Assembly (NCBI RefSeq): GCF_045037415.1
Contig: NZ_CP173438.1
From: Escherichia coli
GTDB lineage: Bacteria > Pseudomonadota > Gammaproteobacteria > Enterobacterales > Enterobacteriaceae
Reading direction: 5' to 3' (one strand)
DNA: 64,000 nt
This document shows, in pieces, positions 2,560-59,889 of this stretch. How positions within the stretch are numbered: position 1 is the stretch's first letter; every line of letters begins with the position of its first letter. The notes under the pieces were generated by a model. That model did no database searches. It was not told the origin of the DNA and saw only the letters and a program-made list of their open reading frames with translations. The position numbers and the translations under genes were made by a program.

Positions 2560-3069
2560 ATGTACACTTCAGGCTATGCACATCGTTCTTCGTCGTTCTC
2601 ATCCGCAGCAAGTAAAATTGCGCGTGTCTCTACGGAAAACACTACAGCCGGGCTTATCAGTGAAGTTGTCTATCGCGAAGATCAGCCCATGATGACGCAA
2701 CTTCTACTGTTGCCATTGTTACAGCAACTCGGTCAGCAATCACGCTGGCAACTCTGGTTAACACCGCAACAAAAACTGAGTCGCGAATGGGTTCAGGCAT
2801 CTGGGCTACCCTTAACGAAAGTAATGCAGATTAGCCAGCTCTCCCCTTGCCACACCGTGGAGTCAATGGTTCGCGCTTTACGCACGGGCAATTACAGCGT
2901 GGTGATCGGTTGGTTGGCAGATGATTTGACTGCAGAAGAGCATGCTGAACTTGTTGATGCGGCAAATGAAGGTAACGCTATGGGGTTTATTATGCGTCCG
3001 GTAAGCGCATCCTCTCACGCAACGAGACAACTTTCCGGGCTAAAAATTCACTCTAATTTGTATCATTAA
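2560..3069 (+). CDS. sulA: SOS cell-division inhibitor SulA, 169 aa
   Basis: Translation from [11 protein letters not shown] matches SulA; track ORF starts 2 codons upstream at 2554. Confidence 0.9.
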
Positions 3070-3424
3070 GTAAATTTAGGATTAATCCTGGAACTTTTTT
3101 TATCGCCCAGCCAATGCTTTCAGTCGTGACTAATTTTCCTTGCGGAGGCTTGTCTGAAGCGGTTTCCGCGATTTTCTTCTGTAAATTGTCGCTGACAAAA
3201 AAGATTAAACGTACCTTATACAAGACTTTTTTTTCATATGCCTGACGGAGTTCACACTTGTAAGTTTTCAACTACGTTGTAGACTTTACATCGCCAGGGG
3301 TGCTCGGCATAAGCCGAAGATATCGGTAGAGTTAATATTGAGCAGATCCCCGGTGAAGGATTTAACCGTGTTATCTCGTTGGAGATATTCATGGCGTATT
3401 TTGGATGATAACGAGGCGCAAAAA

Positions 3425-4477
3425 ATGAAAAAGACAGCTATCGCGATTGCAGTGGCACTGGCTGGTTTCGCTACCGTAGCGCAGGCCGCTCCGAAAGATA
3501 ACACCTGGTACACTGGTGCTAAACTGGGCTGGTCCCAGTACCATGACACTGGTTTTATTCCTAACAATGGTCCGACCCACGAAAACCAACTGGGTGCAGG
3601 TGCTTTTGGTGGTTACCAGGTTAACCCGTATGTTGGCTTTGAAATGGGTTACGACTGGTTAGGTCGTATGCCGTACAAAGGCGACAACATCAACGGCGCA
3701 TACAAAGCTCAGGGCGTTCAGCTGACCGCTAAACTGGGTTACCCAATCACTGACGATCTGGACATCTACACTCGTCTGGGTGGTATGGTATGGCGTGCAG
3801 ACACCAAGGCTAACGTACCTGGTGGCGCATCCTTTAAAGACCACGACACCGGCGTTTCTCCGGTCTTCGCTGGCGGTGTTGAGTATGCGATCACTCCCGA
3901 AATCGCTACCCGTCTGGAATACCAGTGGACCAACAACATCGGTGATGCACACACCATCGGCACTCGTCCGGACAACGGCATGCTGAGCCTGGGTGTTTCC
4001 TACCGTTTCGGTCAGGGCGAAGCAGCTCCAGTAGTTGCTCCGGCTCCAGCTCCGGCACCGGAAGTACAGACCAAGCACTTCACTCTGAAGTCTGACGTTC
4101 TGTTCACCTTCAACAAAGCAACCCTGAAACCGGAAGGTCAGGCTGCTCTGGATCAGCTGTACAGCCAGCTGAGCAACCTGGATCCGAAAGACGGTTCCGT
4201 AGTTGTTCTGGGTTACACTGACCGCATCGGTTCTGACGCTTATAACCAGGCTCTGTCCGAGCGTCGTGCTCAGTCCGTTGTTGATTACCTGATCTCTAAA
4301 GGTATCCCGGCAGACAAAATCTCCGCACGTGGTATGGGCGAATCCAACCCGGTTACTGGCAACACCTGTGACAACGTGAAACAGCGTGCTGCACTGATCG
4401 ATTGCCTGGCTCCGGATCGTCGCGTAGAGATCGAAGTTAAAGGCATCAAAGACGTTGTAACTCAGCCGCAGGCTTAA
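3425..4477 (+). CDS. ompA: Outer membrane protein A, 350 aa, variant surface-loop allele
   Basis: Signal peptide [21 protein letters not shown], beta-barrel, APAPAPAP hinge and C-terminal OmpA/peptidoglycan-binding domain; track ORF 3338..4477 includes 29 spurious upstream codons. Confidence 0.95.
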
Positions 4478-4490
4478 GTTCTCGTCTGGT

Positions 4491-4520
4491 AAAAAACCCC
4501 GCTGCTGCGGGGTTTTTTTT
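4491..4520. terminator. Rho-independent terminator between convergent ompA and matP
   Basis: AAAAAACCCCGCTGCTGCGGGGTTTTTTTT: GC stem flanked by A and T runs. Confidence 0.8.
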
Positions 4521-4552
4521 CGCCTTGCGTAAATTGAACTGACTTTTGACAG

Positions 4553-5005
4553 TTATTCCTTACCCAGCAATGCCTGCAGATCCTGCTTCAAAGAAGACAT
4601 TTTATTCGCGTATTTCTCTTTGTTTTCCGCATCTTCAATCAGCTGAACAATCGTTTCAGAAAGCGTTTTACCGCGACGCTGCGCAAGGCCAGCCAGACGT
4701 TGCCAGACGATAAATTCCAGATCGATCGATTTTTTGCGCGTATGCTGGTGTTCCGCATTAAAATGGCGCTTCCGTCTGGCCCGAATGGTCTGCTTCATGC
4801 GATTGACCAGTTCCGGATTCATATGCTTGTCAATCCAACCATTTACCAGCACGGGTTCATTTTCCAGCGAGAGCAACTCATCGACGGCTTCCTGGGCGGC
4901 ACTGGCTTCTATGTAACGGGTGATTAACTCCCCTTCGCGGTGCTTCTTCACCAGATACTTCCATTTCCAACCGCTTTCAAGATTTTCAAGTTGTTGATAT
5001 TTCAT
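4553..5005 (-). CDS. matP: Macrodomain Ter protein MatP, 150 aa
   Basis: 150-aa ORF recognised as MatP (YcbG); K-12 synteny. Confidence 0.9.
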
Positions 5006-5190: not shown

Positions 5191-6951
5191 TTGACCATTA
5201 CGAAACTTGCATGGCGTGACCTGGTTCCTGATACCGATAGCTATCAGGAAATATTTGCTCAGCCACATTTGATTGACGAAAACGATCCTTTATTCAGTGA
5301 TACTCAACCGCGACTGCAATTTGCGCTGGAGCAGTTGCTGCATACGCGAGCATCCTCCTCTTTTATGCTGGCGAAGGCCCCGGAAGAGTCTGAGTATCTG
5401 AATCTTATTGCTGATGCCGCGCGTACGCTACAAAGCGATGCAGGCCAACTGGTGGGCGGTCACTATGAGGTTTCCGGCCACACCATCCGCTTACGTCACG
5501 CAGTGAGTGCAGATGATAATTTTGCGACTTTAACGCAAGTTGTCGCTGCCGACTGGGTAGAAGCAGAGCAACTCTTTGGCTGCCTGCGTCAGTTTAATGG
5601 CGATATTACCCTGCAGCCTGGTCTGGTGCATCAGGCAAATGGCGGTATTCTCATCATCTCTTTGCGTACACTGCTGGCGCAACCTCTGCTGTGGATGCGG
5701 CTGAAAAATATCGTTAACCGCGAGCGTTTTGACTGGGTTGCGTTTGATGAGTCGCGCCCTCTCCCCGTCTCTGTGCCTTCGATGCCATTGAAGCTGAAAG
5801 TCATTCTGGTAGGCGAACGCGAATCATTGGCTGATTTCCAGGAGATGGAGCCAGAGCTTTCAGAGCAGGCTATTTATAGCGAATTTGAAGATACTCTGCA
5901 GATTGTCGATGCGGAGTCAGTAAGCCAGTGGTGTCGCTGGGTGACATTTACCGCCAGACATAATCACTTACCAGCACCGGGAGCGGATGCCTGGCCGGTA
6001 CTTATCCGCGAAGCAGCACGCTACACTGGTGAACAAGAAACACTTCCGCTTAGCCCGCAGTGGATCCTCCGCCAGTGTCAAGAGGTCGCCTCCCTGTGTG
6101 ATGGCGACACCTTCTCCGGCGAGCAGCTAAACTTAATGCTACAGCAGCGTGAATGGCGCGAAGGTTTCCTCGCTGAACGCATGCAGGATGAGATCCTTCA
6201 GGAGCAAATCCTGATTGAAACCGAAGGCGAACGCATCGGGCAAATTAACGCCCTTTCGGTCATTGAATTTCCGGGTCATCCACGCGCTTTTGGCGAACCT
6301 TCTCGCATTAGCTGCGTTGTGCATATTGGCGATGGTGAATTCACCGACATCGAACGCAAAGCGGAGCTTGGCGGCAATATCCATGCGAAAGGGATGATGA
6401 TCATGCAAGCGTTCCTGATGTCGGAACTACAGCTTGAGCAACAGATCCCCTTCTCAGCATCGCTGACATTTGAGCAGTCATACAGTGAAGTGGATGGCGA
6501 TAGTGCCTCGATGGCTGAACTCTGCGCTCTGATCAGCGCCCTCGCCGATGTGCCGGTGAATCAGAGTATCGCTATCACAGGTTCAGTCGATCAGTTCGGT
6601 CGCGCCCAGCCAGTCGGTGGTTTAAATGAGAAAATCGAAGGCTTCTTTGCTATTTGCCAGCAACGTGAGTTAACGGGGAAACAAGGTGTCATTATCCCCA
6701 CTGCTAACGTTCGCCATTTAAGTCTTCACAGTGAACTGGTGAAAGCGGTAGAAGAAGGCAAATTCACCATCTGGGCAGTAGACGATGTGACTGACGCACT
6801 GCCGTTATTATTAAATCTGGTGTGGGATGGCGAAGGCCAGACGACGCTGATGCAAACCATCCAGGAACGTATCGCACAAGCATCGCAACAGGAAGGACGT
6901 CACCGTTTTCCATGGCCATTACGTTGGCTGAACTGGTTTATTCCGAACTGA
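5191..6951 (+). CDS. ycbZ: Putative Lon-like protease YcbZ (LonH), 586 aa, TTG start
   Basis: 586-aa ORF beginning [10 protein letters not shown] on a TTG codon; K-12 synteny. Confidence 0.85.
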
Positions 6952-6962
6952 TCGGACTTGTT
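6946..6962 (+). promoter_or_regulatory. Putative FadR binding site of the fabA promoter
   Basis: AACTGATCGGACTTGTT resembles the FadR operator as recalled; lies upstream of fabA and overlaps the ycbZ 3' end. Confidence 0.5.
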
Positions 6963-55123: not shown

Positions 55124-55886
55124 TTACTTACCAGAGGCGATACGATCACGGATGTGTTGCGCACGCTCTGTTGATGGTGGGTGAGAATCAAACATGGACT
55201 GGGTGTGACCGCCATCCAGGCTAGCGAGTTTTTCAAAGCTACCAACCAGCCCCTGGGTACTGATGCCACGTTTCTTCAACAGATCAAAGGAGAAATCATC
55301 TGCTTCTGACTCTTTATCACGGGAGTATTTAGCATTGATAGCGCCTTCTGCGATATCACCCAATTGTGAGCGGGAAAGCTGGGAAGCCACACCGCTGGTA
55401 GCTGAAATGGCATCGCGTGCGGCCACGATCGCATAAGAAGCTTTCATTTCAGCCAGCGAGTGACCCAACGCGACGTGGCCCAGTTCATGGCCCAGAACGC
55501 CTTCAATTTCGTTGTCGTTCATCATGTCCATCAGGCCACTGTAGACACGAACACAACCGTTCGCCATCGCCCATGCGTTGACGTCGCTGGTCATATAAAC
55601 CTTATAGTTGACTGGCGTGCCATTAATATTGTTACCCAATGCTTTGGCGATTTTTGCCAGACGTTTCCCGTACTTGCTGGATTTGCTTGCCACTTTATTG
55701 CCGCTGTCCATTTCGACACAGCCCTGATTGGCGATTGCTTTAGCATCAGCATCGCTTAATGTTGCGGCTTTATAAGCATTCAGACCTGAGCTGATAGCCA
55801 AATCGGTATTAATACCGTGCGTATTCTGACATCCTGTCAGTAAGGCTGCAGAGGTCGCAATCGCCAGCAATAATTTAGTATTCTTC
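55124..55886 (-). pseudogene. ycaL: Zn-metalloprotease lipoprotein YcaL: coding body intact but native ATG start and RBS displaced at the prophage junction
   Basis: In-frame codons for KNTKLLLAIATSAALLTGC (lipobox) and HELGH zinc motif are present, but the codon where Met1 is expected reads CAG, an in-frame TAA lies 16 codons upstream, and the first usable start is a TTG at codon 7 with no SD. Confidence 0.55.
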
Positions 55887-55961
<75 letters not shown>

Positions 55962-55962
55962 T

Positions 55963-56040
<78 letters not shown>

Positions 56041-56049
56041 TTGCAGATA

Positions 56050-56439
56050 TTACTCTTTTTTCTCCGTATCTGCATCGGGTTCATCAGCAAATAGCTTGCC
56101 CTGCATCCGATCCAGTTCTTCTTTTCTTACCCGCTTAACCACGCTGTAGACCCACTGAAGCGAAACACCAAATTTGCGGGCCAGTTCGTGGTGGTTGCGT
56201 CCGTTAAACTCCCTGAAGATTTCCCGGTCGCGCTGACTGACCTTCCATACCATGCCCATCGGGAAATAAACGTTTTGCCCGCCCCAGACCTGCATCATTC
56301 GGTTCGCGACGGCCTGACCAATCTGGTCGGCAACTTCGGGCTCAATATCAATAATCTCGCGAACGGTCTCAGAGGTATGCTGTGCCAGTTCCACCAGGAG
56401 TTCCGGCCCCTTACTTCGAAACTGATTCAGGTCGCTCAT
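56050..56439 (-). CDS. mor: Mor/C-family transcriptional activator (Mu middle-operon regulator homologue), 129 aa
   Basis: Same length as Mu Mor; motifs GGQNVYFP and REFNGRNHHELARKFGVSLQWVYSVVKRVR parallel the Mor HTH region as recalled. Confidence 0.75.
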   Translation of the reverse strand: MSDLNQFRSKGPELLVELAQHTSETVREIIDIEPEVADQIGQAVANRMMQVWGGQNVYFPMGMVWKVSQRDREIFREFNGRNHHELARKFGVSLQWVYSVVKRVRKEELDRMQGKLFADEPDADTEKKE

Positions 56440-57968: not shown

Positions 57969-58180
57969 TGTTCTGTATCTCCGGTATTTTTCTGCCGTTT
58001 CCATGCCCGGACAGCGTCGGACAGCTCTTTCAGGCTGTATGCTGCTTTAAGCTTTTCCCATAACCACTGTGTTGTTATGTGCATCAGCAGGGCAGCCAGG
58101 GCTGCCCCCGCACTGAGGCATGTCGCCAGGCCAGTAAGAATCAGTGTCCATGCGGTGATTTCCCTGAGTATGTCAGCCAT
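57965..58180 (-). CDS. Small membrane protein, 71 aa
   Basis: Single predicted TM helix (WTLILTGLATCLSAGAALAALLM) followed by a charged tail. Confidence 0.4.
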   Translation of the reverse strand: MADILREITAWTLILTGLATCLSAGAALAALLMHITTQWLWEKLKAAYSLKELSDAVRAWKRQKNTGDTEQ

Positions 58181-58194
58181 TGAATGCCTCCCGG

Positions 58195-58491
58195 TTACTC
58201 GTTCGTGTAAATCACGCCCAGTCGTGCAGCCAGACGTTCCAGTTTTTTCTGTTTGTGGAAGTCAATCAGCCGGTCCATCCCCTGAAGGCGCAGTTGCTCT
58301 GTCATGATTTCCACGTCTGCCAGCTCTGCCGCGAGGTCACTTTCGCTGCCCTGTCCGTTCAGGTTGCGGGCGGCACTGGCCGCCAGTTCAGCGGCCTCTT
58401 CTGCCAGTTTCAGGGCCTGTGCGTCCGGCCCGAAACGCTGCAGGGCCAGACGGTAGAGGGCGGTGCGGGTGAGTTCGGTGTTTCGTGTCAT
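58195..58491 (-). CDS. MazG-like nucleotide pyrophosphohydrolase-domain protein, 98 aa
   Basis: EEAAELAA...AAELADVEIM pattern typical of the small all-alpha MazG/HisE fold. Confidence 0.5.
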   Translation of the reverse strand: MTRNTELTRTALYRLALQRFGPDAQALKLAEEAAELAASAARNLNGQGSESDLAAELADVEIMTEQLRLQGMDRLIDFHKQKKLERLAARLGVIYTNE

Positions 58492-58500
58492 GCCGCGCCC

Positions 58501-58773
58501 TCAGTGCTTCCGGCTGACGGTGATGTGCAGGCCGCCTTCTGCAGTGGTTTCCATCCGGTACGGCACCTCATGCTCTGCCGTGTGGGTGAGTGTGTTCATC
58601 AGTACCTGCAGGGCAGCCTCCTTTCCGTTGGTCGCCACAATGGCCTGTGTGGCCATGCTGATTAGCGCCGTCAGGACGTGCTTCACATCGGTGAGGTCGC
58701 GGCATTCACACTCGTTGACATAGTGTTCAACAAGGGTTCGGGTGCGCTGTCGTGCTTCCTGTGGGGTAATCAT
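58501..58773 (-). CDS. Hypothetical phage protein, 90 aa
   Basis: ORF in operon context, coupled to the downstream gene; no motif recognised. Confidence 0.4.
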   Translation of the reverse strand: MITPQEARQRTRTLVEHYVNECECRDLTDVKHVLTALISMATQAIVATNGKEAALQVLMNTLTHTAEHEVPYRMETTAEGGLHITVSRKH

Positions 58774-58964
58774 TGCGAGTCCTCCCTGTCAGGGCGGGAG
58801 AATTCCATGACGGGCACGTCTGCCGAAAAATGCTGGCTGCAGTACGGGCAGACCAGGGTGACGCGTACCGCAGGGATGTGGTATTTACCGGACATCACGG
58901 CGATGGCGCTGTGAAAACGCAGGGCTGTTATATCCCTCTCGCACTGAATACATTTAAATATCAT
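58770..58964 (-). CDS. Small zinc-ribbon protein, 64 aa
   Basis: CxxC (CIQC) ... CxxC (CPYC) pairs. Confidence 0.45.
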   Translation of the reverse strand: MIFKCIQCERDITALRFHSAIAVMSGKYHIPAVRVTLVCPYCSQHFSADVPVMEFSRPDREDSQ

Positions 58965-59061
58965 GATTTAATTCTCCTCTGTTTCCGGCGTGCAGAAGCC
59001 CGCGGCGCTGACGTCGGAATAAAAAAGAAAATGTTTTTATTAAATAATTAACGTGGTGTGT

Positions 59062-59592
59062 TTACTGCACATCCTGCTCAAAAGGAATTATTGAAAAATC
59101 CTCAATGTCGCTTTTAATGGAAATACCGGGAATATTTTTCACGGCCTCTTTTTCATTCAGGATAGCGTCTTTATTTATTTCCTCTTTTACACGAATAAAG
59201 CGCTCAAGCCCCAGACGTCTCAGTAATTCAATAACATTATCCGCCCCACGGATACTGACTGATGGCGGACGGTTTCGCCACTGCACCTCGCCGGTGGTGA
59301 GGTTAGCGAACTTCACCTTCCCGTTGCCGGTCAGTTCATCACGGTGTGCCTCACACCATGTCTGAATACCGGACTGCAGTTCGGCCATGCGTTTTTTCAG
59401 GCTCTCGGTGAGCGGGGCATAACGTGCGGTGATATCGCCAATGGCGTCATTCATTTCTGTTTCAGCCCTGACCAGTTCACGTTGTGCGTCACCGAGTAGT
59501 CTGATTCCCTCAATGACCTCTTCACGTGTCCCCGGCACCCAGAGTGCTGCTGCGGCCTTGATACGTTTTGCACCTTTTGTACTTTTTGCCAT
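59062..59592 (-). CDS. gam: Gam-like host-nuclease inhibitor / DNA-end binding protein (Mu Gam family), 176 aa
   Basis: MAKSTKGAKRIKAAAALWVP...TEMNDAIGDIT...WCEAHRDELT...VSIRGADNVIELLRRLGLERFIRVKEEINKDAIL...FSIIPFEQD closely parallels Mu Gam as recalled. Confidence 0.85.
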   Translation of the reverse strand: MAKSTKGAKRIKAAAALWVPGTREEVIEGIRLLGDAQRELVRAETEMNDAIGDITARYAPLTESLKKRMAELQSGIQTWCEAHRDELTGNGKVKFANLTTGEVQWRNRPPSVSIRGADNVIELLRRLGLERFIRVKEEINKDAILNEKEAVKNIPGISIKSDIEDFSIIPFEQDVQ

Positions 59593-59619
59593 TTTTTATG
59601 ATTTCTCCAGTTGTGCTGA

Positions 59620-59889
59620 TTACCACAAAGATTCCGGCCACACGACGCGACAGCCGTGCAGTTCGAAAACGCCCTGACGGAAATATCCCCTGTGGTCATG
59701 TCCGGTATACAGATAACAGGCCTTTCCCTGCTCAAGCATGCGCATGCAATGCGCACTCCGGGAAACGCGGATGACAGGTTTGTTACCCCTGATGGTGATG
59801 CTTTGTACATCCGTGTTCGTCGCCTTAAGCGCCATAATGGCTGACTGCACTTTGCTGATTTGCTGGTTGATACCTGTGGTGGATTTCAT
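59620..59889 (-). CDS. Hypothetical phage protein, 89 aa
   Basis: ORF between the MuB-like gene and gam, where Mu carries kil; no motif recognised. Confidence 0.4.
   Translation of the reverse strand: MKSTTGINQQISKVQSAIMALKATNTDVQSITIRGNKPVIRVSRSAHCMRMLEQGKACYLYTGHDHRGYFRQGVFELHGCRVVWPESLW

Follow-up and report, generated by a model that had tools for sequence, protein, structure and literature searches.

A 64,000-nucleotide (nt) stretch of Escherichia coli DNA (RefSeq assembly GCF_045037415.1, contig NZ_CP173438.1), hereafter the window, contains two small adjacent genes that encode proteins of 64 and 90 amino acids (aa), termed here z64 and p90. We conclude with high confidence that these are independent proteins that are adjacent only, and that they do not constitute a two-part system. 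Both belong to a BcepMu-like transposable prophage, in its early ("semi-essential") operon. A previous reading, made from the sequence without database searches, had placed two open reading frames (ORFs) of these lengths here, with the stop of one overlapping the start of the other, and had regarded them as a coupled pair. The ORFs, both on the minus strand, and their overlap are confirmed, and the pairing is not upheld. The two genes and their translation signals are as follows.

58770..58964, minus strand: z64, predicted 64-aa stand-alone C4 zinc-ribbon protein, PHROG 3401
58501..58773, minus strand: p90, 90-aa protein with three modelled helices and a C-terminal beta-hairpin, PHROG 3691
58770..58773, minus strand: ATGA stop/start overlap of z64 and p90, read from the sequence
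58974..58979, minus strand: z64 Shine-Dalgarno sequence GAGGAG, 9-nt spacer to the ATG, read from the sequence
58780..58786, minus strand: p90 Shine-Dalgarno sequence GGGAGGA, 6-nt spacer, within the 3' end of z64, read from the sequence

The z64 stop codon TGA (58772-58770) overlaps the p90 start codon ATG (58773-58771). RefSeq lists z64 as WP_001295928.1 and p90 as WP_000632576.1, both labelled hypothetical protein. Plus-strand ORFs that overlap the two genes are antisense by-products. One plus-strand ORF (6731-6952) is annotated in the GenBank record of Escherichia phage PhiKM (PQ738613.1), in which z64 corresponds to 6671-6865 on the minus strand. Because RefSeq and conservation put z64 on the opposite strand, this annotation is probably a wrong-strand gene call.

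The conclusion that the proteins are independent rests on their distribution. A concatenated z64-p90 profile was used in one search for both proteins against 1.84 billion representatives. Loci gathered with both queries were then annotated with custom hidden Markov models, which gave 64 non-redundant z64 loci. The gene that immediately follows z64 in these loci is distributed as follows.

p90: 34 loci
MazG-like gene: 20 loci
gene for an unrelated 72-aa protein (u72): 8 loci
other: 2 loci

Thus, co-occurrence analysis finds that z64 and p90 are not always together; p90 is missing from 30 of the 64 loci. In Klebsiella phage KP12 and in loci L045 and L047, which have the most divergent z64 homologues, z64 is coupled straight to the MazG-like gene. 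Conversely, 21 loci have p90-family genes and no z64 (19 from IMG/VR, together with L049 and L051); the locus search used a narrower p90 alignment, because the broad one was too divergent. The phages in question are of lambdoid type or Mu-like and carry DnaB, RecT, integrases or serine recombinases; in some of the Mu-like phages, the p90 homologue is located elsewhere in the operon. Because z64 loci lacking p90 and p90-family loci lacking z64 both exist, the two genes are not an obligate pair.

The overlap itself does not mark a unit. The 4-nt ATGA overlap is present at the end of z64 in 51 of the 64 loci, independent of which gene is downstream, and therefore reflects z64 itself and the packing of the operon rather than marking z64 and p90 as a unit. 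Among E. coli-type loci, z64 is 92-100% identical and p90 is 72-100% identical. z64 and p90 thus do not co-vary, because z64 hardly changes while one p90 allele is exchanged for another.

Each protein is nevertheless a convincing gene product in its own right. z64 matches PHROG 3401 from end to end (1-64 of 64, E = 1.6e-40). Its two knuckles, CIQC (C5, C8) and CPYC (C39, C42), are separated by a 30-residue spacer. In a 10-sequence alignment that extends down to 27% identity, residues K4, C5, C8, L37, C39, P40, C42 and Q44 are invariant, and all four cysteines are also invariant across all full-length variants. An AlphaFold2 (AF2) model with a mean predicted local distance difference test score (pLDDT) of 88.6 has strands at residues 16-24, 31-38 and 45-51, followed by a disordered tail. 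The knuckles in this model lie on beta-hairpins that flank a three-stranded antiparallel sheet. Given the invariant CxxC knuckles and the modelled fold, z64 is assigned to the C4 zinc-ribbon structural class, in agreement with what the sequence-only reading had proposed from its two CxxC pairs. After the last strand, where model confidence is low, the C-terminal tail has a conserved motif of roughly P-x-(M/L/W)-(E/D/S)-(F/L)-x-P.

The relatives of z64 are a handful of proteins, each 61-73 aa long, hypothetical where named and restricted to Enterobacterales; they occur in Escherichia, Salmonella, Klebsiella, Enterobacter, Citrobacter, Yersinia and Morganella. Fusions of z64 to other domains, which could serve as Rosetta-stone evidence, are absent from the 44 family clusters. 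When the z64 model was used to search AFDB50 with Foldseek, its own family was returned first, including Salmonella Typhi Q8Z6W4 at 98% identity and 20-30% identical proteins of Serratia, Klebsiella oxytoca, Brenneria and Aquitalea. Across 40 IMG/VR loci, pairwise ratios of nonsynonymous to synonymous substitution (dN/dS, or omega) relative to the window allele are 0.04-0.27. z64 is a fixed early-operon gene of enterobacterial BcepMu-like phages that is lineage-restricted and strongly constrained.

p90 matches PHROG 3691 from end to end (1-90 of 90, E = 4.2e-56), and its AF2 model (pLDDT 91.9) is a three-helix bundle with a C-terminal beta-hairpin. Residues 1-76 also match about 60 remote representatives, which are proteins of roughly 80 aa. 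The best-kept positions of this broad family are M1, A7, A11, Y18, C22, C24 (46 of 58 for each), D29, L34, L37, S39, G50 and A54. p90 therefore belongs to a broad phage family whose three-helix domain contains a conserved CxC loop; in this case, the domain is extended by the beta-hairpin. Over the same 40 loci, dN/dS relative to the window allele is about 0.2-0.65 where differences suffice; a few near-identical alleles give values of about 1.3 that derive from 5-10 differences in total. Full-length PHROG matches, dN/dS values, confident AF2 models and, for z64, cysteine conservation establish that both are real protein-coding genes.

The family of small helical homodimers that includes YejL (UPF0352, DUF1414) was considered as a possible homologue of p90 and rejected, since hhalign assigned a probability of about 1% with either YejL alone or a three-sequence YejL profile. 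YejL proteins lack the CxC loop and the hairpin found in p90, and their own function is unknown.

Variation in p90 is concentrated in one segment, which is listed here.

58663..58761, minus strand: p90 allele-replacement island, codons 5-37, from helix 1 through the CxC loop into the beginning of helix 2

Nucleotide identity in the island is 59-62%, whereas its surroundings are 92-100% identical between prophages. Synonymous divergence (dS) in the island is saturated and omega is about 0.23. These values indicate that the N-terminal module has been replaced by an old, diverged allele through recombination and not diversified by point mutation. At least three p90 N-terminal allele types circulate in E. 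coli. The diverged N-terminal type of the island is also present in phage Phi06_2974 B, joined there to a different C-terminal half.

The 1.6-kilobase (kb) stretch around z64 and p90 (58100-59700) is 100% identical to PhiKM, a phage of the genus Bcepmuvirus. RefSeq annotation of an identical prophage gives the operon order on the coding strand as DDE transposase, ExeA/B-like ATPase, an 89-aa hypothetical protein, Gam, z64, p90, the 98-aa MazG-like protein, a 71-aa hypothetical protein that reads as a membrane protein, DUF2786, two small hypothetical proteins, gp16/GemA and Mor. This order is that of a BcepMu-like early operon, so the location in a phage early region that had been suggested for the two ORFs holds, as does the MazG-like gene directly downstream. 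Both ORFs are conserved in related prophages. The immediate neighbors are as follows.

58195..58491, minus strand: MazG-like 98-aa NTP pyrophosphohydrolase, PHROG 2245 (E = 5.5e-34), the next gene downstream
59062..59592, minus strand: Gam host-nuclease inhibitor (RefSeq annotation), the upstream neighbor
58965..59061, minus strand: conserved intergenic element, 97 nt between Gam and z64, part of neither protein

The intergenic element comprises an A/T-rich tract, a hairpin of the form CGGCGTCAG-N12-CTGCACGCCG, the sequence GAAACAG, the Shine-Dalgarno sequence and the z64 ATG. The hairpin (6+3 base pairs) has its arms at 59008-59017 and 58985-58995 and is located 25 nt upstream of the z64 start. 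Among 40 distinct sequences, about 35 show hardly any change in the element, which exceeds the flanking genes in conservation. It is retained with either Gam or the unrelated DUF3164 protein upstream, and also in loci whose z64 has no more than about 55% identity. The same layout lies between gam and gene 11 of phages Mu (L124, 6326-6423) and D108 (L127, 2287-2384), where the stem is altered in a compensatory way (GGCGCG/CGCGCC). In Klebsiella phage Kp4866-3 (L126, about 2987-3066), the element is directly 5' of the MazG-like gene, and in loci L104 and L105 another gene lies between the element and z64. Its predicted RNA fold has a z score of -2.4 relative to shuffled sequences. A consensus scan of the element found no sigma-70 promoter or intrinsic terminator, and a comparison with Rfam gave no match. 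A reasonable guess is that the element serves as a processing site, a stabilizer or a translation-control hairpin that marks where the distal block of the early operon begins.

The slot after z64 behaves as a cassette site, in which an unrelated 72-aa or 128-aa (p128) protein may replace p90 or the MazG-like protein. Examples are found at L048 5185-5403, L043 4469-4855, L040 4482-4994 and L126 3067-3555. The possibility that u72 is a divergent p90 was rejected (hhalign probability 0.2%). The MazG-like protein sometimes has a C-terminal extension of 60-70 aa, giving lengths of 170 aa in L040 and 162 aa in Kp4866-3. In an unrelated phage contig, L128, a remote p90-family gene (4001-4243) is followed about 100 nt on by an ORF (4350-4640) whose EEAAE...ECCDIIAVIEML motif reads as MazG-like; this is one case in 19 and might be coincidence.

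The semi-essential region of Mu, from gam to gemA and including gp11-gp14, occupies the same place in its operon as z64 and p90 do, after Gam and a homologous intergenic element. Within it, the Cys-rich gp13 (60 aa) is followed by gp14 (roughly 100 aa), an order that resembles z64 followed by p90. gp13 (L124, 7471-7653) contains CPTC, CPHC, CNHC and CMNC; it corresponds to z64 in position but shows no detectable homology to it. Homology of z64 to gp13 was rejected because hhalign aligns only the CPHC knuckle (probability 32%), and homology of p90 to gp14 was rejected at an hhalign probability of 0.2%. gp13 and gp14 are thus at most positional analogues. Consistent with this, a tblastn search with z64 and p90 against 50,697 phage records, Mu included, found matches only in PhiKM, Phi06_2974 B and KP12. 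The impression from sequence that the two ORFs have no counterpart in Mu was therefore sound.

Searches against other collections found no characterized homologue of either protein. Pfam, searched with single sequences and with every alignment member, gave sub-threshold noise and no informative match. NCBIfam, and the PDB searched with both sequences and profiles, yielded only zinc-knuckle or repeat-protein matches below threshold, regarded as noise; the designed propellers Tako8 and Ika8, which appeared among the PDB hits, were discarded as artefacts, with zero passing stretches. z64 scores 14.5 bits against the NCBIfam model for the YnfU family (NF038384 / PF23499), for which the cut-off is 36, and matches only at its second knuckle. 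No match was obtained at E <= 1 in PADLOC-DB 2.0 for z64, p90 or three neighboring proteins. The literature, searched by accession, PHROG identifier and phage name, held nothing relevant on z64 or p90. PHROG 3401 and PHROG 3691 contain z64 and p90, respectively, together with their remote homologues, and are families without assigned function, so the family name is not an explanation.

We lean slightly toward a reading in which z64 and p90 are both independent of each other and non-catalytic, protein-binding early accessory proteins. Each would be expressed from the early operon as a separate small protein, and both would act without catalysis by binding another protein of the host or the phage. 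Confidence in this mechanism is low. It is suggested by the tiny size of the two proteins, their near-neutral to acidic character, the lack of any enzymatic or nucleic-acid-binding signature, and the z64 tail motif, a conserved feature that may serve binding. The median isoelectric points (pI) of the families, 6.8 for z64 and 5.6 for p90, count against nucleic-acid binding. Among proteins of the corresponding region of Mu, the small proteins Kil, Gam and GemA act by binding another protein. z64 is the first gene after the intergenic hairpin, with its stop overlapping the start of whichever gene comes next. p90 is a facultative cassette, inserted between z64 and the MazG-like gene, whose N-terminal module has been exchanged by recombination. 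The ATGA overlap probably helps ribosomes to continue from one gene of the operon to the next and would not reflect a stoichiometric complex.

Several observations weigh against this account. Every E. coli-type locus that has Gam has both genes, and an overlap or near-overlap is kept in 34 of the 34 z64 loci that carry p90; a lineage-specific interaction between z64 and p90 may therefore exist. The MazG-like gene is at most two genes downstream of z64 in about 54 of the 64 loci, which might mean that the two are linked in function as well as sharing a position. Moreover, the protein-binding mechanism is derived from negatives, and the weak fold likeness of z64 to Ogr/Delta- and TFIIS-type ribbons would also be compatible with a regulatory role.

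An obligate unit of the two proteins, for example a heterodimer, a toxin-antitoxin-like system or a chaperone-client pair whose synthesis would be matched through the overlap, is highly improbable. The ATGA overlap and the presence of z64 with p90 in all 40 IMG/VR loci recovered with p90 would fit such a unit. However, it is largely refuted by distribution, given the z64 loci without p90, in which the same overlap is made with the MazG-like gene or u72, and the p90-family loci without z64; the near invariance of z64 against swapping p90 alleles and the lack of a PADLOC match also speak against it. A different partnership, in which the MazG-like NTP pyrophosphohydrolase has z64 as its partner or regulator and p90 entered this older two-gene module later, is unlikely. 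Direct ATGA coupling of z64 to the MazG-like gene is seen in 20 of the 64 loci, including those with the most divergent z64 (27-34% identity; L045, L047 and L120-L123), and in the remaining loci MazG comes after p90. Yet about 10 z64 loci lack MazG and have u72 or p128 cassettes instead. In addition, Kp4866-3 has the intergenic element followed directly by the MazG-like gene with no z64, BcepMu has a pyrophosphatase and no detectable z64, and fusions that might betray a link are zero among the 44 z64 family clusters.

Two further proposals concern the proteins singly. P2 Ogr/Delta proteins are zinc-finger transcription activators, and Mu Com is a zinc-finger translational activator. That z64 is a nucleic-acid-binding regulator of this kind, perhaps acting on the adjacent hairpin, is improbable. 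It is a small C4 zinc protein in a regulatory operon, the conserved hairpin lies just 5' of its start, and the Foldseek matches that come next after its own family are weak ones to Ogr/Delta-type, TFIIS-type and NrdR ribbons (E >= 0.04; template-modelling (TM) score about 0.5). The Ogr/Delta- and TFIIS-type ribbons share with z64 two CxxC knuckles on beta-hairpins and a three-stranded sheet. However, their similarity to z64 reaches only E = 0.04-0.2 at a TM score of about 0.5 and has no counterpart in Pfam, and z64 differs in its 30-residue knuckle spacer and in belonging to a neutral to acidic family. The Ogr/Delta profile (PF04606) is absent among Pfam hits at E <= 10 for z64 and 10 homologues, and z64 has neither a match to the Pfam Com family nor a tblastn match in Mu. 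For p90, a role as a counter-defence or superinfection-exclusion factor, with its N-terminal two-helix module swapped to follow a variable target, is doubtful. In favor of this role, p90 is an accessory cassette that may be present or absent, its replacement island stands out from an otherwise 92-100% identical background, and members of its family are found in many temperate phages within the early accessory region, in one case at a position four genes downstream from an Acb2/Tad1-hairpin gene. However, the saturated dS and low omega of the island are those of old-allele exchange and not of positive selection, p90 does not match known anti-defence or defence proteins, and location alone is weak evidence. 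We give a similarly small chance to the joint proposal that PHROG 3691 is an undescribed, widespread phage family for host takeover or counter-defence, in which the CxC loop would create a site for a metal or a disulphide within a dimer and the N-terminal module would be exchanged to follow a variable host target, while z64 would be a separate lineage-specific zinc-ribbon factor that targets a host or phage protein in transposition-replication.

Other features of the prophage were noted. The phage genes end with Mor (56050-56439), and host ycaL (55124-55870) comes next; RefSeq annotation of the identical prophage places the host genes ycaL, cmk and rpsA after Mor. Therefore, one prophage end is at about 55,900-56,050, and the reading direction of the early operon is outward, to that end. 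At the position of Gam, many relatives carry an unrelated DUF3164 protein of 203-206 aa instead, with flanking genes unchanged (L043, L044, L047 and L048, at about 3310-4923). An IS1 insertion splits the match in two genomes (H1, NZ_CP076697.1; H2, NZ_CP196276.1); in the latter, Gam is annotated twice, which suggests that the IS1 insertion is within Gam.

The 1.6-kb stretch is present in 620 of 5426 complete E. coli genomes and is chromosomal every time. The best-matching genomes presumably include ST131 (sequence type 131) and other clinical lineages. As small early phage genes with hypothetical products, z64 and p90 are an ordinary case, and the prophage that carries them is common in E. coli, being present in about one in nine complete genomes. 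Its early accessory genes are wholly uncharacterized. The functions of the corresponding semi-essential region of Mu have likewise been described as largely unknown (PMC3820752). Because z64 is fixed and p90 is facultative and recombining, the two are separate modules, and experimenters should test each singly; this distinction also suggests that z64 followed by the MazG-like gene is the older order. A new small-protein family would be added if either protein were shown to inhibit a defence system or some function of the host.
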